Shown here piece after piece: positions 1,795-52,045 of a DNA stretch of 64,000 nt. The stretch lies in NCBI RefSeq assembly GCF_044324785.1, contig NZ_CP172127.1; one strand, 5' to 3'. The position numbers were made by a program, and so were the translations under genes. The number at the start of each line of letters is the position of its first letter. Position 1 is the stretch's first letter. The notes beneath the pieces are model-generated. The model did no database searches and had not been told where the DNA came from. It saw only the letters and a list, made by a program, of their open reading frames with translations. This stretch comes from Escherichia coli (GTDB lineage Bacteria; Pseudomonadota; Gammaproteobacteria; Enterobacterales; Enterobacteriaceae).

Positions 1795-3714
1795 ATGAAT
1801 AAGTTTATCGCTGCTGAAGCTGCGGAATGTATAGGCTGTCATGCTTGTGAAATTGCCTGTGCGGTGGCACATAATCAAGAAAACTGGCCGCTGAGTCACA
1901 GTGACTTTCGACCGCGTATCCACGTTGTAGGGAAAGGCCAGGCTGCGAATCCGGTGGCCTGCCATCACTGCAACAATGCTCCTTGCGTTACGGCTTGTCC
2001 GGTTAATGCTCTGACTTTCCAGCCCGATAGCGTACAACTGGACGAGCAAAAATGTATTGGTTGTAAAAGATGCGCAATCGCTTGCCCCTTTGGCGTCGTT
2101 GAGATGGTCGATACGATTGCGCAGAAATGCGACCTTTGTAACCAGCGCAGTTCCGGCACGCAAGCCTGTATTGAAGTCTGCCCAACACAGGCGTTACGGC
2201 TGATGGACGATAAAGGGTTGCAGCAGATAAAGGTGGCCCGCCAGCGCAAAACGGCAGCAGGAAAAGCGTCATCAGACGCTCAGCCATCTCGCAGTGCAGC
2301 GTTGCTCCCCGTTAACTCGCGTAAAGGCGCAGATAAAATTTCAGCGAGTGAACGGAAAACCCACTTTGGCGAAATTTATTGCGGGCTGGATCCACAACAA
2401 GCGACTTTTGAGAGTGACCGCTGTGTTTATTGCGCCGAAAAAGCTAACTGCAACTGGCATTGCCCGCTGCATAACGCTATTCCGGATTACATCCGTCTGG
2501 TGCAGGAAGGAAAGATTATTGAAGCGGCAGAACTTTGCCACCAGACCAGTTCCTTGCCAGAAATCTGCGGCAGAGTTTGCCCACAGGACCGTCTTTGTGA
2601 AGGCGCATGTACTTTGAAAGATCACTCTGGCGCAGTCTCTATCGGGAATCTGGAACGCTACATCACCGATACCGCGCTGGCGATGGGCTGGCGTCCCGAT
2701 GTCAGCAAAGTTGTTCCCCGTAGCGAAAAAGTGGCGGTGATTGGCGCAGGGCCTGCAGGGTTAGGGTGTGCTGATATTCTGGCGCGCGCAGGAGTTCAGG
2801 TTGATGTCTTTGATCGCCATCCAGAAATTGGCGGTATGCTGACTTTTGGCATACCTCCTTTCAAACTCGATAAAACGGTATTAAGCCAGCGGCGAGAGAT
2901 ATTCACCGCAATGGGAATCGACTTTCATCTTAACTGTGAAATTGGCCGCGATATTACCTTTAGCGATTTAACTTCTGAATATGATGCAGTTTTCATCGGC
3001 GTGGGGACTTACGGGATGATGCGAGCAGATCTGCCGCATGAAGATGCGCCCGGTGTCATTCAGGCTCTACCGTTCCTGACTGCCCATACCCGCCAGCTCA
3101 TGGGGTTGCCGGAGTCTGAAGAGTATCCGCTGACGGATGTGGAAGGTAAGCGAGTCGTGGTATTGGGCGGTGGCGATACGACCATGGATTGTTTGCGGAC
3201 TTCCATCCGCCTCAATGCCGCCAGCGTGACCTGCGCGTATCGTCGTGATGAAGTCAGTATGCCGGGCTCGCGCAAAGAGGTGGTCAATGCGCGCGAGGAA
3301 GGTGTTGAGTTTCAGTTCAATGTTCAGCCGCAATATATCGCTTGTGACGAAGATGGGCGTTTAACTGCGGTGGGCCTGATTCGTACAGCCATGGGTGAGC
3401 CGGGGCCGGATGGTCGCCGTCGTCCTCGTCCGGTAGCGGGTTCAGAATTTGAATTGCCCGCCGATGTTCTGATTATGGCCTTTGGTTTCCAGGCGCATGC
3501 CATGCCGTGGTTGCAGGGCAGCGGAATTAAACTCGATAAATGGGGCCTGATTCAAACCGGTGACGTTGGGTATTTACCTACCCAGACGCATCTGAAAAAA
3601 GTCTTTGCTGGTGGTGATGCAGTTCATGGCGCGGATCTGGTTGTCACTGCAATGGCCGCAGGAAGGCAGGCGGCGCGCGATATGTTAACTCTGTTTGATA
3701 CGAAGGCATCGTGA
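1795..3714 (+). CDS. ygfT: Fe-S / FAD-NAD(P)-binding oxidoreductase (glutamate synthase small-subunit-like with N-terminal ferredoxin domain)
   Basis: ORF 1780..3714; Cys clusters [11 protein letters not shown] and CxxCxxC..CP (4Fe-4S) followed by GAGPAGL dinucleotide-binding motif. Start placed at the third ATG (MNKF..., 639 aa, RBS aaaggga) to match the known length; 1780 is an alternative. Confidence 0.85.
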
Positions 3715-4202
3715 TGAAATCGTTAATTATCGTTAATCCGGCTGACTGTATTGGCTGCCGTACTTGTGAAGTGGCCTGTGTGGTCGCTCACCCTTCAGAA
3801 CAGGAGTTGAATGCCGATGTCTTTTTACCCCGGCTGAAGGTACAGCGACTGGACTGCATCAGTGCGCCGGTGATGTGCCATCAGTGTGAAAACGCCCCTT
3901 GTGTTGGCGCTTGCCCCGTGGGAGCGCTGACGATGGGCGAGCAGGTGGTGCAGGCCAATTCTGCCCGTTGTATTGGCTGTCAGAGTTGCGTCAGTGCGTG
4001 CCCGTTTGGGATGATAACCATTCAGTCGTTGCCGGGGGATACCCGGCAACAAATTGTGAAATGCGATCTCTGTGAACAGCGGGAAGAGGGGCCTGCCTGC
4101 GTTGAATCTTGCCCGACACAGGCGCTGCAGTTGCTTACTGAAAGAGAACTCAGGCGAGTCCGCCAGCAGCGTATTGTTGCCAGCGGTGAGAATCCTCTCT
4201 GA
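3711..4202 (+). CDS. ygfS: 4Fe-4S ferredoxin-type protein
   Basis: 163 aa with four CxxCxxCxxxCP-type cysteine clusters; start overlaps ygfT stop (ATGA), consistent with a ygfST operon. Confidence 0.85.
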
Positions 4203-4209
4203 AAGAAAT

Positions 4210-4231
4210 CTCCGCGCTGAAAGGCGCGGAG
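4210..4231. terminator. Hairpin between convergent ygfS and ghxQ (probable bidirectional terminator)
   Basis: Inverted repeat ctccgcgc-tgaaag-gcgcggag; T-rich run on the minus-strand side (end of the ygfK-ghxQ operon). Confidence 0.5.
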
Positions 4232-4237
4232 AATCTA

Positions 4238-5605
4238 TTAGATTGCCCAACCACCCGCGTAAAATGCGACCAGTGCGGCAGTAATGATCACCGTACCAAT
4301 ATTCAGCTTTTGCCATTCGCGTGCAAAGACGCGGCCTACGACCAGTGTCACAAAGCCCAGCATAATACCGGTAACGATATTACAAGTCAGAACGATGAAC
4401 ACGGCACACACCAGGCCAGCCATAGCGTCAATAAAATCATTGAAATCCAGCTTCGAGACGTTACTTAACATCAGCAAACCTACGTACATCAGAGCGGGTG
4501 CAGTGGCGTAACCAGGGATCAAAAATGACAGCGGTGATAAGAACAAAATCAGCAGGAATAACGCCCCCACTACGGTTGCGGTCAACCCTGTTTTACCCCC
4601 GGCGGCGGTTCCTGCCGCTGATTCGATATAAACCGCTGCGGGCGCTGCGCCCACCAGGCCGGAGAATATTGAACTTACTGAGTCACTGGTCAGGGCTTTG
4701 CCGCCGTTGATGATCTGGTTGTCTTTATCCAACAAATTCGCCTGACCGGCGACGGCACGGATGGTGCCAGTGGCGTCGAACACTGCGGTCATCACCAATG
4801 CTAGTACACTCGGAAGTACAGTTGGCTGGAGTGCGCCCATAATATCGAGGCTGAAAATCAGAGACTTACCATCTTCGCCAGTCAGGCTTGGCATCGCCAC
4901 CAGACCGTGGTATTTCACCGCTGGATCAAAGATTAAGCCGATGATCGAGATGGCAATAATCACCAACAAGATCCCGCCGGGTACGCGGCACTTTTCCAGA
5001 CCGAAGATGACCGCCAGCCCCAGCAAGCTCATCATCACCGGGAAGGAGGTAAACGCACCGAGCGCCACCGGCAAGCCTTCAATCGGGTTTTTGATAACCA
5101 TTCCCACACCGTTAGCAGCAATCAGCAGCAGAAACAGGCCGATACCGATACCTGTACCGTGAGCGATACCCATGGGCAAATTACGTAAGATCCAGGTACG
5201 CACACCGGTTACGGAAATGGCGGTGAAGATGACGCCCATCAGAAAGACCGCGCCCAGTGCGACAGGAACGCTAATTTGTTGCCCGAGTACCAGACTGAAT
5301 GCGGTAAACGCCGTCAAGGAAATCGCGCAACCAATCGCCATTGGCAAATTGGCCCATAACCCCATCAGCAACGAGCCGAAGCCCGCGACCAGACAGGTGG
5401 CAACAAACACAGCTGCGGGAGGAAAACCTGCTTTGCCCAGCATTCCCGGAACGACGATAACGGAATAAACCATGGCCAGAAAGGTCGTTAAGCCAGCCAG
5501 TACTTCCTGACGAACGGTACTGCCACGAGCGGTAATTTTAAAATAATTATCCAGCGCGCCCTGTGGCTTTGGTGCGTCCGGTGTTTGTAGGATGTCTCCA
5601 GACAT
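4238..5605 (-). CDS. ghxQ: Guanine/hypoxanthine permease (NCS2/AzgA family)
   Basis: 455 aa multi-TM protein; length and synteny match K-12 ghxQ (ygfQ). Confidence 0.85.
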
Positions 5606-5640: not shown

Positions 5641-6960
5641 TTAGTTGCGTTCGTACACCAGACGACCATCAACGTAGGTGCGGTAGATCGAACGGTCATC
5701 GCCCAACGTCATCATCACGAACAATTTGTCGACTAAAGAAACAGAGTTGTCATAGCGCAGCTGCTGTAGCGGAGTGGCGGTGGGTTCCATCACCACGAAA
5801 TCAGCCTCTTTGCCAGGTAAAAAGTTGCCAATCAAATCGTCAAGGCCCAGAGATTTCGCTCCGCCGAGCGTGGCCAGGTAAAATGCTTCATATGCCGAGA
5901 GGCGATAGCCTTGTAGTTGCAACACTTTGTAGGCTTCGTTTAGCGTTTGCAGCATGTTGAAAGTTGTTCCGGCACCGATATCCGTTCCCATGCCCACTTT
6001 GACTTTCTTCTGCCATGCTTTTTTCAAGTTGAATAAGCCGCTGCCGAGGTAAAGGTTGGAGGTCGGACAGAAAGCAATGCTGGATTTGGTTTCGCTGAGA
6101 CGATCCCACTCTTTTTCTTCGAGATGGACGCAGTGAGCAAAGACACAGTTTTTACCTGTCAGGCCATACTGGTGATAAACATCCAGATAGCCATCATGTT
6201 CAGGATAAAGTTCTTTCACCCAGGCAATTTCATCTTTGTTTTCACAGAGATGGGTATGTACCCACGTATCCGGATATTCTTCTTTCAGGCGTTGCGCCAT
6301 CGCCATCTGTTCAGGTGACGATGTTGGGGCGAAGCGTGGTGTAATGGCATATAACAGACGGCCATTTTTATGCCAGCGTTCGATCAGTTCTTTGCTTTGG
6401 TGATAGCTACTTTCCGCCGTGTCGAGCAGATAATCTGGCGCATTACGGTCCATCATCACTTTACCGGCAATCATTCGCATATTGATATGACTGGCGGCTT
6501 CAAACAACGCATCCACAGATTGTGGATGAACCGTACCAAACACCAGTGCCGTAGTCGTACCGTTACGTAAAAGCTGCTTGATGAAGAACGCCGACATTTC
6601 GCGGGCGTACTCTAAATCCTCATAACGACGTTCAGTAGGGAAGGTGTGTTTATTCAACCACTCCAGCAATTGCTCACCATAGGCTCCCACCATTTCACTT
6701 TGCGGATAATGGATATGTGTATCGACAAAGCCCGGTACTATCAGTTTGCCGCGATAGTCGCGCACGCGAATGGTGTCAGGAATTTGATGCTTTCCGTTTT
6801 CCCATTCGCCAAACCATTCCACTTTTCCCTGTTTAATAAGTAATAAACCATCCTCAATAAACCGCAGCGCAGAGGCAATCTCTTCCGGGTTATCGACCGT
6901 ACGGGTGACATCAATAAAACTGCCTCGTACCGCTTTTAACGTGTGTTCTCCTGACATCAT
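5641..6960 (-). CDS. guaD: Guanine deaminase (amidohydrolase superfamily)
   Basis: ORF 5641..7080 trimmed to the internal ATG (MMSGEHTLKAVRGSFIDV..., 439 aa) with AAGGAG RBS; amidohydrolase metal-binding HxH pattern. Confidence 0.85.
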   Translation of the reverse strand: MMSGEHTLKAVRGSFIDVTRTVDNPEEIASALRFIEDGLLLIKQGKVEWFGEWENGKHQIPDTIRVRDYRGKLIVPGFVDTHIHYPQSEMVGAYGEQLLEWLNKHTFPTERRYEDLEYAREMSAFFIKQLLRNGTTTALVFGTVHPQSVDALFEAASHINMRMIAGKVMMDRNAPDYLLDTAESSYHQSKELIERWHKNGRLLYAITPRFAPTSSPEQMAMAQRLKEEYPDTWVHTHLCENKDEIAWVKELYPEHDGYLDVYHQYGLTGKNCVFAHCVHLEEKEWDRLSETKSSIAFCPTSNLYLGSGLFNLKKAWQKKVKVGMGTDIGAGTTFNMLQTLNEAYKVLQLQGYRLSAYEAFYLATLGGAKSLGLDDLIGNFLPGKEADFVVMEPTATPLQQLRYDNSVSLVDKLFVMMTLGDDRSIYRTYVDGRLVYERN

Positions 6961-33487: not shown

Positions 33488-33561
33488 GCGGGCGTAGTTC
33501 AATGGTAGAACGAGAGCTTCCCAAGCTCTATACGAGGGTTCGATTCCCTTCGCCCGCTCCA
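33488..33561 (+). tRNA. glyU: tRNA-Gly (anticodon CCC)
   Basis: 74-nt sequence GCGGGCGTAGTTCAATGGTAGAAC...TTCGATTCCCTTCGCCCGCTCCA with cloverleaf stems, anticodon loop cTTCCCAAg and encoded 3' CCA. Confidence 0.9.
33544..33561 (+). repeat. attL core (3' end of glyU)
   Basis: Exact 18-bp copy of the sequence at 52689-52706. Confidence 0.75.
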
Positions 33562-34940: not shown

Positions 34941-35062
34941 CTGGTTGAGTATACAGTAGTAGACTTTGAGCGACGAAAGAAAAAGCTGTGTCTAGGGTCG
35001 CTCCCGAAAAACCGTATACCTCGACGGGCTGGCACAGCCACTACAGTAGAGGACGCTGAGGT

Positions 35063-37191: not shown

Positions 37192-37741
37192 ACCTGTCTT
37201 TTATGCCGGGCGCACTGAAATCTCTGTCATTAAATTCGATGACATTCAGGTGCGCATAGTGAGTATCAACGGCGAGCCGTGGTTTGTTGGCGCTGATGTG
37301 TGTGCTGCGCTGGAAATCAGCAATGTTACTGATGCTGTTTCAGTTCTGGATAACGACGAGGTAATGACCCTAGCTTTAACCGAGGGGCATTCCGGTAAGC
37401 GTGGTGGTGCCAGAAGCTGGAATGTTGTCTCTGAATCAGGTTTCTACAAACTGATCGCCCGCAGCCGTAAAGCTTCCACACCTGGCACATTTGCGCACCG
37501 TTTCAGTAACTGGGTATTCCGCGAGGTTATTCCTTCAATCCGCAAAACGGGGAGTTATGGTGTTCCGTTTGCCATGCTGAATGATTTCAGTAAACGCCAG
37601 GCTGCATATCAACAGGAAGCCAGCAAACGCGGTTACAGGTTACAGCAATGCAAAGAGGCAAAAGATGCACTGGAACGAGAAGAGCGGGCGCTATGGCGTA
37701 AATATCAGCCTGATTTTCTGGAGGGTGAAAGCAATGTGTAA
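37184..37741 (+). CDS. Bro-N domain protein (phage antirepressor family)
   Basis: 185 aa; GEPWFVGADVCAALEISNV...VLDNDE...ESGFYKLIARSRK...FSNWVFREVIPSIRKTGSYG is the Bro-N signature. Confidence 0.7.
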   Translation: MRKPVFYAGRTEISVIKFDDIQVRIVSINGEPWFVGADVCAALEISNVTDAVSVLDNDEVMTLALTEGHSGKRGGARSWNVVSESGFYKLIARSRKASTPGTFAHRFSNWVFREVIPSIRKTGSYGVPFAMLNDFSKRQAAYQQEASKRGYRLQQCKEAKDALEREERALWRKYQPDFLEGESNV

Positions 37742-37909
37742 CGATCCGAACGTTACAGAAAGAAAAAGCGCCCCGTTGCTGGATAACAGGCAAAACAAAG
37801 GCGACCGGGATAGGTCGCCAGTGGGAACAAAGGAAATCAAACGCATCGCCAACAATGCCAGATTTGCGGCTGGTGGGCAATGTGATCAGTGTGCTGGCTT
37901 GCTGGTGGG

Positions 37910-38107
37910 CTATTCCTGCTCTTTAGCATCGCCATACTGCGATGTTTTCCAGGTATGCGATCCCATTTTTGTGCGCCTGTACTCTTTTAAGAACTTCTCA
38001 AGGACAAACGCACATGGCGCAAATCTTTCCTGTTCTTGTTCGCTTACCGCATTTTTGCGTTGTTTTTTCCTGGATGAGGATAATTTCTTTAATGATTTGT
38101 CAGTCAT
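37910..38107 (-). CDS. Small hypothetical protein (paralogue of 38165..38362)
   Basis: 65-aa minus-strand ORF in a region where the overlapping plus-strand ORF looks non-coding; shares the C-terminal KEQE ending and a basic/acidic pattern with its neighbour. Confidence 0.3.
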   Translation of the reverse strand: MTDKSLKKLSSSRKKQRKNAVSEQEQERFAPCAFVLEKFLKEYRRTKMGSHTWKTSQYGDAKEQE

Positions 38108-38164
38108 CGTAGATACCTGTAACCCTGTGCGCCACAGTTCACCGCACCACGGCGCTGGTGATGG

Positions 38165-38362
38165 TTACTCCTGCTCTTTGGCCTTCCGGCGCTGTTCATA
38201 TTTTAATTTGCGTCCACAGGCATCTAAGACCCATGCGGAAAAATTAGCACTAGGATTAGTTAATTTTTCTTGTTCAACACTGGCATCAATCCCATCTATA
38301 AGCTCGTGCGGGAATCGAATATTTTTCTTTGCTGATTTGTTGTTTGTGTTTCCGCTAGACAT
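38165..38362 (-). CDS. Small hypothetical protein, candidate regulator divergent from the replication operon
   Basis: 65-aa minus-strand ORF whose 5' end abuts the operator-like palindromes at 38391-38469. Confidence 0.3.
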   Translation of the reverse strand: MSSGNTNNKSAKKNIRFPHELIDGIDASVEQEKLTNPSANFSAWVLDACGRKLKYEQRRKAKEQE

Positions 38363-38390
38363 TGGTACACCTCACTTAAATGGATTTGAT

Positions 38391-38469
38391 GGGCGCACAC
38401 AATACAGCAAAAAAAGTGAGAAGTTAAGTATTGACATGTGCGCACACATGATTTTAATCTGTGCGCACA
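38391..38469 (+). promoter_or_regulatory. Sigma70-like promoter overlapped by three GTGCGCAC palindromic operator-like sites
   Basis: -35 TTGACA (38431-38436), 16-bp spacer, -10 TTTAAT (38453-38458); palindrome GCGCACA at 38393-38399, TGTGCGCACACA within the spacer (38437-38448) and GTGCGCACA at 38461-38469. Confidence 0.45.
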
Positions 38470-38567
38470 GTTTGGGTTGCATTGCTCAAATTAAGCAACG
38501 CCCCGCAGTGCTCGCAACACATGCAGGGCGTCTAACCACCAACGATAGAAAGCGTATCGAGGTAGCT

Positions 38568-38771
38568 ATGTTAAATCATACCACACACCCGCAAGGGCGG
38601 GACTCGCACAACCTGAATAAATACATCTGGCGTTTTATCGCCCTGAGCACCGCACAACCACGCGTAATACACATCGAGGCCGCCAGCGAACAGGAAGCCC
38701 GTCAGCAATCCCCGGCTGGCTGCGTGATGGTATTTACTGCCCGCATCCGTCAGGGGGAATACTATGCGTGA
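38568..38771 (+). CDS. Small hypothetical protein (first ORF downstream of the operator-controlled promoter)
   Basis: 67 codons (MLNHTTHPQGRDSHNLNKYIWRF...) with GAGG RBS; corresponds to the only plausible coding part of ORF-track entry 37581..38771. Confidence 0.3.
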   Translation: MLNHTTHPQGRDSHNLNKYIWRFIALSTAQPRVIHIEAASEQEARQQSPAGCVMVFTARIRQGEYYA

Positions 38772-48273: not shown

Positions 48274-51029
48274 TGAAACAGGCATGTGTTGAAGCTATTG
48301 CGCAGACACTTGGTCGCCAGCCAAAGGCTGATGAGCTGAAAAATATCGAAGATCGTATCAAAGAAGCAGTGCAACATGTGCACAGAAAGAATGCAAAAGA
48401 AGGCAAAAGTGGTATTCCTGATGCTCAAACATACATGGATGCTGCAGAACTGGTACGCCAGCGTGTGGTTCATGATGTGTACAAGAAAAGACAGCGTGTT
48501 GCCCAGAATGCGATCGCCATCAGTAAAATTACTGACACTCTCGATGCTAACATCCCGCCTGATCAGCAGACACCTGTTAATTTGCAGCAGTTTATTTTTG
48601 CTGGCCGACGATCGAGAGACAAAGCTGATATCTCCGTTGCTTCTGCTGAAGAGCTTGCAATTGGGGCATATCAGGACTGGTCCCGTCAGCTCAGTGCTGA
48701 ACTTCTAAAAGCAGGTGATGACGTCCGCAAATTCTTCGAGCAGAGCAGGGCGCTTGGAGAGCAGCGGTTTCGGAGTGTATTCGACAGGCAGGCGGCAAAG
48801 TCTGCACAACTCCAGATCCTGAAAGAAATATATGGCGAAGATACCGGGAATCCCCTGGCGAAGAAAATTGCACAGATTTGGAAGGATGTAACAGGCCGTG
48901 TTCGTCATGAGATGAACGACAATGGCTTTGACATAGGCCTGCGAGAAGACTGGCATACGCCATATGTGGATGATGCTGACCTTATTCGCAATGCCGGGCG
49001 CGAAGAATGGCTGGCATCGTTACCAGTGGCAGAGCAAGCTACAGCACGTCTTTCAGGTCGCCAGCCACCGATTGAGTTTGCCCGCCAGAAATGGGTTGAT
49101 GACGCTTACAACACGCAGGATCGCAGCAATTACGTTAATCCTGACGGCAGCATTATGAATGACGTCGAGTACCGTCAGGCACTGGAAGCGATCTTTGAAA
49201 CGAAGGCCACTGATGGGGCAAACAAAATTGAGCCTGGTACATTTATGGGAGCCGGAGGAATAAAGAGCCGTGGTTCTCAGCACAGGGTGATGGCGTTCAA
49301 GGATGCGCAGTCACACTTCGCCTATATGGAACGATACACTCAGCAGCCGCTGGTGGGGGTGATGATGTCGCACCTGCAATCATCATCCAGGGATTTGGGC
49401 GTCGTTAAAGCCTTTGGTCCGGACGCCGAAAGAAACTTTTCCCTGGTACTGGATCGCATCTATAAGCGCGCAGTAACAGGCGGGAAACGCAAAAAAGAAA
49501 TGGAGGATGAGGCCAAATTAGTTGCCCGTATGTTCAACTCAATGGCTGGCCTAAATGGTGTCGCTTCATCGAGTGTGTTCTCTTCAGCAGTTGGTGGTCT
49601 GCGTAACCTGATGACCAGCGCCATGCTTGGCACCAGCGTACTGACAGCAACCAGCGACCAGGCAATTATGCGGGCAAATGCGCAGGCGCTGGGCTTTACC
49701 CGTGGTGGAATGCGGCTTTCCGTTAACACTATCAAAAACCTGTTTAGTGGAGATGCCAAAAAGGCGAATGCTGAACTCGGTCTGCTGGTGGATTCACATG
49801 CTGCTGTGGTTTCGAAAATGGGCGGGTTTGACTTGTCTCGCGGCATAACTGGCTGGTTCGCAGAGAAGACACTGAAGTGGTCCGGGCTGATCGCTATGGA
49901 CCGCGCAAACAAAGCGTCGTTTGGTCTCCTGATGTACAAAAACATTGGCGAGCTGACCAGAAAATTTAAGACGCTGGACGATATGAAAGGAACCGATAAA
50001 ACCATTCTGGCTAACAAGGGATGGAGCAATGAGGACTGGGCCATCATGGCAGCGGCAGAACTCAGGCCGATGACTACTGCCGGGCATATGGGGATGACGC
50101 CAGACGCGATTTACGCTGTGCCCGATAACGTAATAGCCGACATTATGGCAGACCGTATTACCCGGATTCGTGCCGGGAGTGAAAAGGCACTGGCAGCCCT
50201 TGGAGATCTCCCTCCAGAACGCCTGAAACGGATGAAAGAAGCATTCGACGCTGAGGCTGAGCAGACCATCACGCGCATGATTCGTAATGCACGCGCTGAA
50301 GCAGCCCAGAAATTGCTGGGAATTACGCACGGTGAGATGACCAATGCTGTGACCACCGCTACGGGTATTGATACATATGCCCGTGATGATGCTGGCGAGT
50401 TAATGAAGAGCTTCATGCTCTTCAAAACAACCCCATTTGCTGGATTTCGGCAACTTGTTAACAGAACACGGGATTTGGACACCGTTCCGGCCATTAAATT
50501 TCTGGCCTCATATATCGGGGGAACAACTCTTGCTGGTATGTTTGCGATCCAGATGAACAGTTTGTTAAATGGTAATGATCCGCTGGATATGACAAAACCA
50601 ACCACATGGGTTCAGGCTTTACTGAAAGGTGGTTCGTTCGGTATCTACGGTGATTTTATTTTCCAGGACCATACGCAATATGGCTCCAGAATCGGTGCCA
50701 CTATGGGTGGCCCTGTGTTGAGCTTTGCAGAGCAGTTAACAAAATTACTGATTACTAACCCACAGAAGGCTCTACAGGGTGAAGAAACATCATTCGGTGC
50801 CGATGCACTGAAAACAGCCCGCATGATCACCCCATTCGCAAACCTGTGGTATGCGAAAGCGATAACCAATCACCTGATATTGCAACAACTTCAGGAGATG
50901 GCAAACCCTGGTTACAATGATCGAGTAAGGGACCGCGCGCAACGGGAGTTCGACATAACGAGTTGGTGGGAACCGGGTGCTATTGCGCCACGTAGAGCAC
51001 CGGATTTTGGAAAGGCGGTGGGGAACTGA
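48273..51029 (+). CDS. Large hypothetical protein (918 aa), cargo operon gene 3
   Basis: ATG at 48273 overlaps the upstream stop (TAATG) with a GAGGA RBS; the ORF-track start at 48252 is a GTG in the same frame; no recognisable catalytic motif. Confidence 0.6.
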   Translation: MKQACVEAIAQTLGRQPKADELKNIEDRIKEAVQHVHRKNAKEGKSGIPDAQTYMDAAELVRQRVVHDVYKKRQRVAQNAIAISKITDTLDANIPPDQQTPVNLQQFIFAGRRSRDKADISVASAEELAIGAYQDWSRQLSAELLKAGDDVRKFFEQSRALGEQRFRSVFDRQAAKSAQLQILKEIYGEDTGNPLAKKIAQIWKDVTGRVRHEMNDNGFDIGLREDWHTPYVDDADLIRNAGREEWLASLPVAEQATARLSGRQPPIEFARQKWVDDAYNTQDRSNYVNPDGSIMNDVEYRQALEAIFETKATDGANKIEPGTFMGAGGIKSRGSQHRVMAFKDAQSHFAYMERYTQQPLVGVMMSHLQSSSRDLGVVKAFGPDAERNFSLVLDRIYKRAVTGGKRKKEMEDEAKLVARMFNSMAGLNGVASSSVFSSAVGGLRNLMTSAMLGTSVLTATSDQAIMRANAQALGFTRGGMRLSVNTIKNLFSGDAKKANAELGLLVDSHAAVVSKMGGFDLSRGITGWFAEKTLKWSGLIAMDRANKASFGLLMYKNIGELTRKFKTLDDMKGTDKTILANKGWSNEDWAIMAAAELRPMTTAGHMGMTPDAIYAVPDNVIADIMADRITRIRAGSEKALAALGDLPPERLKRMKEAFDAEAEQTITRMIRNARAEAAQKLLGITHGEMTNAVTTATGIDTYARDDAGELMKSFMLFKTTPFAGFRQLVNRTRDLDTVPAIKFLASYIGGTTLAGMFAIQMNSLLNGNDPLDMTKPTTWVQALLKGGSFGIYGDFIFQDHTQYGSRIGATMGGPVLSFAEQLTKLLITNPQKALQGEETSFGADALKTARMITPFANLWYAKAITNHLILQQLQEMANPGYNDRVRDRAQREFDITSWWEPGAIAPRRAPDFGKAVGN

Positions 51030-51343
51030 TGACGAGAGATAAAATTGAATATATTGCTTCTCTTAAATATGAAGCTGAGAAATGGAGAAGGATTGGCGGG
51101 TGGGGAACATTAATATCACTCTCTGCTTTACTTATAGACTCCTGGTTCAGACATATTGATGCAGCATCATTACTTTTTGAATCAGCAGTACTTGGTGGAT
51201 TCATTTGCTGTTGGGGTGGTAATTATGATCGGGCGTCCAAACATAAGAGAGAACTTGACGCGATATGTTTTGCTTTATTCGGTAAGGATTACGAAAGTTC
51301 TGACCTTGATATAATTGAATTCAACAAAACGGAACTATCGTGA
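51029..51343 (+). CDS. Small protein with one hydrophobic segment (104 aa), cargo operon gene 4
   Basis: TGATG coupling to gene 3; predicted membrane-spanning stretch (LISLSALLIDSWF...VLGGFICCWGG); followed by a terminator. Confidence 0.45.
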   Translation: MTRDKIEYIASLKYEAEKWRRIGGWGTLISLSALLIDSWFRHIDAASLLFESAVLGGFICCWGGNYDRASKHKRELDAICFALFGKDYESSDLDIIEFNKTELS

Positions 51344-51351
51344 CATGTCAC

Positions 51352-51376
51352 AGGCCGCTTTCGCGGCCTTGTTTTT
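51352..51376 (+). terminator. Rho-independent terminator of the cargo operon
   Basis: Stem aggccgc / gcggcct with loop tttc, followed by TGTTTTT; 9 nt after the stop of the 104-aa gene. Confidence 0.6.
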
Positions 51377-52045
51377 AACGAATGCCACCGCCGCCCGGGC
51401 GGGAATTCGCAGATAAAAAAGCACGCTGCACGGTTTTATTAATACTTATACCATTAGGATTGATCCTTCAATGGACAATCCTTCCATCGTGTGGCCAGCC
51501 ATTCATATTCTTTGTCTTTTCTTCAGTATCGGCTTTGCATCTTCTACACCCTGAAAGATGTCGTTTTATGGTGTATCTGATGATTTATTCCCTAACAATA
51601 GATATTCGAAAAATTAATCAGTTAAAACAATTATTTGGATAATTTCAGGTAAAACTATCTTAATCTTCTGGTGGATCTCAATGCGTAGTGACGGTATCGG
51701 GATTAAGGGCGTGGATATTCGCGATATATGCCGCTACACCCCTCAACAGTAATAGATATGAGCTTTTCACGCTCTCCTTTCACTGCTGAGAACGGCAACA
51801 ACGTGCCACAGGAACGCGCTGTAATCGATTCTGACGCACTTAATTGCGTTGGGTAATGGTTTTTGCCAGCCTGTGGGGGTAACTCTGTTTTATGAGGCTT
51901 TGGCTATAGTGCAAAAATACACTTTGTCTTGCCTCTCAATTTGATGAGACTGGAACGACAACAGGACAGACCACCAGCAACAGTTACCGTATTCAGCCGT
52001 TCTGTGGCACCAGTGGAACTATCAACCCCTGCTTTCAGCAATGTG

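Follow-up and report, generated by a model that had tools for sequence, protein, structure and literature searches.

A probable immunity switch of a tRNA-Gly-associated satellite island in Escherichia coli, with a candidate ribbon-helix-helix repressor gene antisense to an eta-like reading frame

We analyzed a stretch of 64,000 nt from the Escherichia coli contig NZ_CP172127.1 (assembly GCF_044324785.1), in the following called the window, in which two open reading frames (ORFs) of 65 codons, here named ORF A and ORF B, lie one behind the other on the minus strand (coordinates of all features are collected in Table 1). The region belongs to a genomic island beside a tRNA-Gly gene. We consider it probable that it constitutes the immunity switch of a Gram-negative phage-inducible chromosomal island (PICI) or P4-type satellite, with ORF A as the repressor and with a long plus-strand ORF, similar to eta of the satellite P4, running antisense to both small genes. 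The observations behind this reading are the gene families present, a ribbon-helix-helix (RHH)-like fold of ORF A, the covariation of operators and repressor and the conserved openness of the plus-strand frame. The genes are already annotated and the eta/kil logic of P4 is known; a protein repressor in Gram-negative PICIs is not mentioned in the open-access literature that we searched, and may be described elsewhere. The locus offers a concrete candidate for such a repressor, namely a hypervariable RHH-like protein with private operators on the promoter of an icd-primase operon, which is also found in the island EcCICFT073, and thereby suggests a likely role for the uncharacterised YlcI/YnfO (DUF3950) family. 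Furthermore, it presents ∼400 nt of gene overlap on two strands in which the antisense frame appears to be kept free of stops by selection, and its operator-repressor specificity types would predict mutually immune satellites.

Both minus-strand ORFs and their KEQE endings were present as reported in a preliminary description, which had been made from the sequence without database searches and had left the coding status uncertain. A 901-nt query across both ORFs (37700–38600) matched several complete E. coli genomes at 100% identity; there, the Prokaryotic Genome Annotation Pipeline (PGAP)/RefSeq lists ORF A as coding sequence WP_000094456.1 ('YlcI/YnfO family protein') and ORF B as WP_024188802.1 ('hypothetical protein'). 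We judge both ORFs to be coding. Their starts lie 255 nt (85 codons) apart and they consequently have a common frame; the spacer between them translates in the window as PSPAPWCGELWRTGLQVST.

ORF A is a clear member of the YlcI/YnfO (DUF3950) family, as it matched NF041551 with 59 bits (cutoff 30, E 3.5e-16) and PF13132 with 28.3 (cutoff 25); PF13132 was matched by 38 out of 38 aligned ORF A homologues. Such homologues were found throughout Enterobacterales, with R16, F17, P18, F41, S42, W44, V45 and C49 invariant. The AlphaFold2 (AF2) model of the monomer (predicted local distance difference test score, pLDDT, 76) contains an extended segment at residues 13–18 followed by helices at 19–35 and 41–64, a strand-helix-helix topology that resembles solved RHH domains. 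We regard the RHH assignment as moderately supported but not proven, because matches of the 38 homologues to RHH Pfam families were only sub-threshold (HicB_lk_antitox in 10 of them, best E 0.0021; single matches to Arc (0.0092), NikA-like, CopG_antitoxin and RHH_1), a Foldseek comparison of the monomer with the PDB gave no meaningful match, and a linker-fused tandem (dimer) AF2 model was of low confidence (pLDDT 51) and showed no strands. A profile search of PDB sequences gave 0 matches and phmmer gave none to RHH proteins. The ORF A motif N-I-R-F-P-H-E-L-I resembles N-L-R-W-P-R-E-V-L of Arc, and Arc and Mnt of the P22 immI region are likewise small RHH proteins whose palindromic binding sites overlap the promoters of a divergent control region. 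However, the sequence match between ORF A and Arc is not significant (hhalign probability 5%), and Arc and Mnt regulate an antirepressor whereas the proposed targets of ORF A are replication and icd genes. We know of no antisense long ORF in P22.

The preliminary description had also pointed out that the two ORFs sit where a repressor would be expected, and this holds for the upstream one, ORF A, which is repressor-like in position as well as in family and fold. The 10-mer TGTGCGCACA has exactly three matches with at most one mismatch in the 64-kb window, all of them inside a span of 80 bp in the interval from ORF A to the Icd-like gene. We consider these three sites candidate operators (O1 to O3). 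A half-site is present at the position of O3 in every other A type, and we propose that O3 could serve autoregulation of ORF A. Relatives of the locus were collected as 80 IMG/VR loci retrieved through ORF B, and the covariation table comprises 84 loci. In the 80 IMG/VR loci the slot upstream of B is occupied by many types of small protein, all with the strand-helix-helix sequence pattern of ORF A: YlcI-like forms of 59–65 aa, forms of 101 aa with an extra C-terminal domain, and Arc-like forms of 57–63 aa, which are also present in O157. All matches of these A-slot proteins to RHH families were below threshold; for one Arc-like protein the top PDB match was the Arc repressor over the full length, at a non-significant E of 1.1. 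For every type we found a palindrome of its own that recurs at fixed places relative to the promoter (for example GTGTTCAACAC, GTGGGCCACAC, GTGGCTGACAC, GGTAATTACC, GGTGGTCACC and TACGTACGTA).

Among the 84 loci, 21 of the 22 N-terminal types of A pair with exactly one operator 10-mer, which recurs nearby at 8–10 of its 10 bases. The Icd types behave differently, since MLNHTTHPQG was seen beside 8 distinct operators and MRNHTTHPQG beside 7, and ORF B is constant across operator types and thus does not covary with the operator. The one-to-one pairing of A type and operator, without such covariation of Icd or B, makes ORF A the probable immunity repressor of the icd-primase operon. Such a pattern is classically seen with immunity repressors and their operators, and it suggests that ORF A binds DNA. 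At the YlcI gene of 26 species of other genera, including Serratia, Rahnella, Pectobacterium, Klebsiella, Pantoea, Xenorhabdus, Proteus, Gilliamella and Orbus, the layout was the same: a TTGAC-type -35 is followed by two operators, the leader and the icd-like gene, and here too the operators are specific to the type. In Rahnella the YlcI N-terminus equals that of the window except for the start codon (GTG in Rahnella), and identical TGTGCGCACA sites lie within otherwise diverged DNA.

Most E. coli RHH types, and all but a few of the 26 other-genus loci, keep a TTGAC-type hexamer at the rightward -35. For the putative leftward promoter, most relatives have a -10 of TATACT or TATAGT that is equally far from the start of A, and relatives carry a hairpin of different sequence at the place of the A-B terminator.

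The plus-strand ORF that crosses ORF A and ORF B extends from 37581 to 38771 (396 codons). Its likely start, ATG 37734, has a GGAGG at 37720–37724, 9 nt upstream, and lies 5 nt before the BRO-N stop codon (37739–37741), so that the two reading frames overlap by 8 nt. From there the frame runs antisense through B and then A, over the promoter and the leader and into the Icd-like protein. The Icd-like domain NF033153 scored 68.6 bits in the window and 73.9 bits (7.8e-21) at residues 85–132 of P4 ORF137 (X51522 8168–8584), the former 'cI protein' ORF that is now known as eta/kil. In the window the frame in icd phase is without a stop in every sub-segment, whereas from the stop of ORF B to the icd start 13 and 16 stops interrupt the two remaining frames; among 65 distinct relatives, 56 have 0 stops in the icd phase compared with 8–19 in each other frame. 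The long ORF had been described as unlikely to be real, a view that does not fit its ending in a domain homologous to P4 Kil and its openness in these relatives. The three segments without a minus-strand gene (∼430 nt) are jointly open in the window with P=0.005 under a Markov null. Furthermore, the A-B spacer is a multiple of 3 in nearly all of the 80 related loci (57, 42, 186, 9, 105 and 48 nt), which keeps both genes in the single antisense phase where third codon positions coincide. In one locus (L003, NZ_CP146512.1) the long ORF starts 11 nt past the alpA stop, with a GGGGAG Shine-Dalgarno sequence. From these comparisons we conclude that selection keeps the plus frame translatable; the eta-like peptide itself looks unconstrained. 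For the part of the frame at 37742–37909, where the minus strand is non-coding, we found no ungapped homologues for a measurement of selection; a peptide recurring there (..KTKAT..GRQW..) reflects the terminator hairpin of the minus strand.

ORF B matched phrog_21027 (6e-46) and is almost confined to Escherichia (44 clusters). It is intact in 80 of 81 sequences (the 80 IMG/VR loci and the window), as 41 protein variants, and indels within it comprise whole codons. Over its C-terminal 39 codons, 21 DNA variants gave conservative replacements in the ORF B frame (mean BLOSUM62 +0.45, synonymous fraction 0.45) and radical ones in the antisense frame (mean BLOSUM62 -0.98, synonymous fraction 0.40), which indicates that protein-level selection acts on ORF B. 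An exhaustive search with a hidden Markov model (HMM) of ORF B yielded only 17 clusters in 1.8 billion representatives, all of them small proteins with [KT]F.LE[QK]FLK..[KR]RTKMG.[HY]TWK.S, and ORF B matched nothing in Pfam or PADLOC. One distant member retains the RHH-B-Icd layout (L085–L087), homologues without A occur on an IncFII plasmid and in another island (L088–L090), and in the other genera B was adjacent to YlcI in none of the 26 loci. ORF B is thus a real orphan gene that is dispensable for the function of ORF A and unlikely to be a dedicated toxin partner. Our best guess is an accessory or modulator function during the silent state of the island; more speculatively, ORF B could buffer leaky Icd/Kil toxicity or sense the helper phage.

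On the IncFII-type plasmid contig (L089/L090 3001–3192) the distant homologue of ORF B stands alone between DUF2913 and sulfatase-family genes; it has a strong Shine-Dalgarno sequence and is preceded, in its own orientation, by TCTAATAACCACCAATAGCG, which is similar to the motif of the icd leader. Two long database proteins, P0161 (2045 aa) and P0166 (767 aa), contain 26 and 11 repeats, respectively, that match the ORF B core motif and may be translations of repetitive DNA.

Several features of the locus correspond to P4. In both elements the alpA/vis homologue, the long ORF and the genes toward the primase follow in the same order, an Icd/Kil domain (NF033153 in each case) forms the end of the long ORF, and a promoter lies inside this ORF, whose frame is kept open upstream of it. 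By analogy, the plus-strand long ORF is the counterpart of P4 eta. In P4 a constitutive promoter is located within eta, whose truncated product is Kil; only a late promoter further upstream gives rise to full-length Eta, by translational coupling with the alpA homologue, and translation of the full-length form blocks termination so that late transcripts read through (PMC10111431, summarising Forti et al. 1999). The two elements differ in the repressor: P4 represses by a processed RNA (C4 and isrK), whereas the window has an opposite-strand two-gene protein operon and palindromic candidate operators on the promoter. By Rfam, C4 (CI RNA) and isrK (seqA) were absent from the window (at the gathering score and at E≤10), from O157 (L002) and from EcCICFT073, while both were detected in the positive controls, P4 and L003. 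The L003 locus (3187–4586) stacks both kinds of module: a YlcI gene identical to that of the window is followed by isrK (3698–3774), C4 (3799–3886) and an Icd-like gene, then by a second C4 (4277–4364) and a second Icd-like gene. This composite indicates that protein and RNA immunity modules are alternatives and can be combined.

A comparison can also be drawn with Stl/Rpr, the master repressors of Gram-positive PICIs such as the Staphylococcus aureus pathogenicity islands (SaPIs). The fold of Stl differs from that of ORF A, which is far smaller, and there is no sequence relation. The likeness lies in the proposed role, that of a divergently transcribed repressor silencing the replication module of the island (PMC6092414). 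Stl is lifted by helper-phage proteins, whereas we propose AlpA-driven read-through as the override here. [quoted passage not shown] In the later papers that we searched, immunity is only of the RNA type (CI/seqA) and is described for some PICIs, and a 2023 survey refers solely to 'immunity repressor RNAs' (PMC10111431).

The switch could operate as follows; the scheme draws on sequence features and on analogy to P4, and it predicts that ORF A binds DNA and represses, that the promoters are active, and that the long ORF is translated and acts in anti-termination. In the silent state a weak leftward promoter would drive the two-gene operon, A then B, which would end at the hairpin 37819–37800. 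ORF A, a small RHH-like protein, would be bound to the three 10-bp palindromes: occupancy of O1 and O2 would cover the TTGACA promoter and the start site and keep the operon of icd-like gene, DUF4222, primase and SSB off, and occupancy of O3, just 3' of ORF A's own -10, would limit synthesis of ORF A. In this way ORF A would take the role that the CI RNA has in P4, with ORF B riding as a passenger in the repressor operon. On induction, plus-strand transcripts from the upstream AlpA-controlled genes would enter the region. The long ORF would be translated only on such AlpA-dependent transcripts, by analogy with P4 eta/kil, and ribosomes would follow the polymerase through the antisense operon, past the repressed promoter and into the replication genes. 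A more general proposal, which we make tentatively and consider rather doubtful as it stands, is that EcCICFT073-type PICIs have a master repressor, an RHH protein of 57–101 aa that was overlooked as it lies antisense inside a 'Bro/eta-like' ORF, and that both strands form one switch. Helper infection would then start AlpA-driven rightward transcription, protected by translation and running head-on through the repressor operon, and this would both silence that operon and bypass the repressed promoter.

Some of our findings weigh against the interpretation as an immunity switch. In 9 of the 65 relatives the long frame is out of phase with icd, although most of these exceptions show 1–2 stops in another frame, as from a single frameshift. 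A strict consensus promoter scan listed no sigma-70 site, and the promoter calls therefore rest on conservation. The covariation of A and operator could stem in part from the physical linkage of neighbouring DNA. We found no reported function of YlcI/YnfO in the open-access literature searched. ORF A and K-12 YlcI have the motif IRFP...NFSAWV..AC in common, but K-12 ylcI adjoins nohD and the cos site of the cryptic prophage DLP12, with no icd-like neighbour and no comparable operator array, which gives the YlcI/YnfO family a second, unexplained genomic context. Finally, given the A and B of the window, openness of the antisense frame is unsurprising under synonymous recoding (P=0.77 and 0.42, respectively).

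This last point leads to an alternative in which only one strand is meaningful, either the long ORF or the minus-strand genes, and the other frame is a 'shadow' that results from coinciding third codon positions. In the antisense phase a stop requires a Tyr, His or Gln codon whose preceding codon ends in a pyrimidine (T or C in the case of Tyr, T in that of His and Gln), hence the high values above, and the unconstrained replacements in the eta frame would also fit. We nevertheless consider this alternative improbable. The minus-strand genes are marked as real by family HMM matches, operator covariation and conservative replacements, and the plus frame is open also over the ∼430 nt without minus-strand coding. 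For other A and B types P was 0.09–0.29 by synonymous recoding, and openness is maintained across at least six unrelated A types with P(open) of 0.18–0.29 each; the contrast in stop numbers between the phases and the spacers that remain multiples of 3 point in the same direction. The preliminary description had named frame-disrupting indels in the minus-strand ORFs, together with conservation of the plus-strand frame, as the outcome that would speak against these genes. This comparison decides neither way, as relatives keep the frames on both strands. We return to the immunity switch with genes on both strands as the preferred reading.

A and B could instead form a type II toxin-antitoxin pair, in which the gene of an autoregulating RHH antitoxin is followed by that of a small toxin, which stabilises the island. 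The operon resembles RelBE and CopG/ParD-type operons in having the RHH gene first, a small basic protein second and an autoregulatory palindrome at its own promoter; A-slot proteins gave weak HicB, CopG-antitoxin and VapB-like matches, and one Joint Genome Institute (JGI) record calls a B homologue 'RelE'. However, A and B are inherited separately: none of the 26 other-genus loci has B beside A, and B occurs without A on the IncFII plasmid and in the other island mentioned above. B resembles no toxin family in Pfam or PADLOC, and two of the three operators are on the opposite, rightward promoter, where such a system would not need them. We therefore hold a toxin-antitoxin pair to be quite unlikely and keep to ORF A as a repressor of the icd-primase operon.

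It is very unlikely that A and B are diverged tandem duplicates with the KEQE ending as the last trace of common ancestry, as their equal length, same frame, 3' repeat of 20–30 nt and loose N-terminal likeness (NKSAKK versus DKSLKK) are outweighed by the lack of any BLASTP alignment at E≤100, by a probability of 0.2% in hhalign (32-sequence ORF B profile against 38-sequence ORF A profile) and by distant B homologues that retain the ...RTKMGxHTWKxS core and have nothing in common with YlcI. The two ORFs were assigned to the unrelated families phrog_949/NF041551 (A) and phrog_21027 (B), and the paralogy and the duplicated pseudo-ORF proposed in the preliminary description are not borne out. Their equal frame and multiple-of-3 spacing are best explained as an effect of the antisense frame. 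The common ...AKEQE ending is due to a DNA repeat of 20–30 nt at both 3' ends: over 33 nt around the stop codons 20 bases match between A and B, whereas random 33-mer pairs from these loci match at 8.3 bases on average, with the 99.9th percentile at 17. The repeat is limited to loci in which the tails of A and B are both of the KEQE type. The tails of A (..KAKEQE, ..GIEPKG) and of B (..KEQE, ..EPD, ..EQKG) are shuffled independently among loci, and one class of loci has a residual ...RRQRRKAKEQE fragment behind a swapped Arc-like gene. Both findings argue for recombination at the 3' ends rather than duplication, and we read the repeat as a probable recombination footprint at module boundaries. 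We also compared the DNA 3' of YlcI in genera lacking B, with regard to an insertion model in which the 3' repeat is a junction scar, and found unrelated sequences.

With respect to the 3' ends, perfect Chi sites (GCTGGTGG) were observed on the plus strand at 37869–37876 and 37901–37908, 32 nt apart and just beyond the stop of ORF B, and a near-Chi (7/8 match) at 38153–38160 beyond the stop of ORF A, within the repeated 3' ends. The 64-kb window contains 20 Chi sites compared with 1.7 expected by shuffling, and Chi may contribute to the mosaic junctions here. An A-B fusion by stop-codon read-through was considered and rejected, since some relatives have extra in-frame stops in the spacer (L059, 'PSPAPW*E').

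Table 1. Features of the proposed switch region in window coordinates (nt)
Feature	Position	Strand	Description
ORF A	38165-38362	minus	65 codons, ATG start, ends ...AKEQE; YlcI/YnfO (DUF3950), RHH-like fold; proposed immunity repressor
ORF B	37910-38107	minus	65 codons, ATG start, ends ...AKEQE; small basic orphan protein, core ERFAPCAFxLEKFLKEY
A-B spacer	38108-38164	minus	57 nt; no stop in either the A/B frame or the antisense eta-like one
3'-end direct repeat, ORF A copy	38163-38182		last codons and stop; 17/20 bases match ORF B copy
3'-end direct repeat, ORF B copy	37908-37927		17/20 bases match ORF A copy
Candidate operator O1	38437-38446		TGTGCGCACA; between -35 and -10 of rightward promoter
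Candidate operator O2	38460-38469		TGTGCGCACA; at expected rightward transcription start; centre 23 bp from O1
Candidate operator O3	38390-38399		TGGGCGCACA; just 3' of leftward -10; centre 47 bp from O1
Putative rightward promoter (PLE-like)	38431-38460	plus	-35 TTGACA 38431-38436; -10 TTTAAT 38453-38458 or TAATCT 38455-38460
Leftward promoter candidate for A-B	38399-38427	minus	inferred; -35 TTAACT 38427-38422; -10 TATTGT 38404-38399
Intrinsic-terminator-like hairpin and T-run, end of A-B operon	37800-37819	minus	GGCGACCTATCCCGGTCGCC then TTTGTTTT; 7 pairs, 6 of them G-C
Eta-like long ORF	37734-38771	plus	345 codons from ATG 37734; frame open from 37581; ends as Icd-like protein
Icd-like/Kil-like gene	38568-38771	plus	67 aa; first gene of the putatively repressed operon; 3' end of eta-like ORF
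Structured leader of icd-like gene	38499-38562	plus	hairpin 1 38499-38530, TCTAACCACCAAC, hairpin 2 38543-38559, Shine-Dalgarno GAGG 38559-38562

The island in the window has an estimated, not measured, length of ∼18 kb. Starting at the tRNA-Gly gene, its order is int, the int-alpA RNA motif, an AlpA-like helix-turn-helix gene, AntA/AntB, BRO-N, B and A on the opposite strand, and then Icd-like, DUF4222, DUF927 primase, SSB, ProQ/FinO and PerC; the same gene order was found in another locus (L119). By this gene order the element, known here from its genes, is to be classed as a Gram-negative PICI of the EcCICFT073 type. EcCICFT073 has the identical module, in which alpA and a plus-strand ORF of 428 codons are accompanied by a homologue of ORF B, a gene annotated 'YlcI/YnfO' and one of the Icd-like kind. 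Of 5,426 complete E. coli genomes, about 1,260 contained DNA that matches the module.

The leader of the icd-like gene is itself conserved. Its first hairpin is GC-rich, the conserved TCTAACCACCAAC lies between the hairpins, and hairpin 2 abuts or carries the Shine-Dalgarno sequence; the motif TCTAACCAC is invariant across relatives. For 32 diverse leaders from many genera, RNAalifold found compensatory changes in 11 out of 11 predicted pairs, and a comparison with Rfam gave no family at E≤10. The leader may therefore be an uncatalogued cis-regulatory RNA.

Annotation of the region varies between related genomes. PGAP lists incomplete 'Icd-like pseudogenes' on the plus strand of O157:H7 TR01 (L002, 2744–3337) and of L003 (2855–3185 and 3458–3910), and the O157 annotation omits the Arc-like RHH gene (L002 3187–3360, minus) and the ORF B homologue (2956–3144, minus). 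Annotation pipelines alternate in this way between 'Icd-like pseudogenes' and small genes because the genes overlap on both strands. In K-12 MG1655, ylcI (L120 6252–6446) is the gene that gave the YlcI family its name.

Further observations concern the flanks of the switch. The tRNA gene lies at 33488–33558, is annotated as tRNA-Gly in the near-identical strain SCU-105 and is the likely attachment site of the island. The int-alpA RNA motif of Rfam was found at 34985–35052 (46.9 bits), 3' of int and 5' of the next ORF. A GC-rich hairpin, GGCTGGCGGCACACAGCCGCCAC, is located between the alpA-like gene and the long ORF in L002 (∼2690–2720) and in another locus, L118 (∼6718–6745), and could be a terminator for an AlpA-type antiterminator to bypass (compare PMC9371919). 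In the late zone of the island, at ∼43700–51400 (L119 19286–26633), three consecutive large hypothetical proteins of 843, 686 and 918 aa are encoded where EcCICFT073 carries capsid genes; they may be counterparts of the 'DNA transfer protein'-like genes of EcCIMP1 (PMC11773190).

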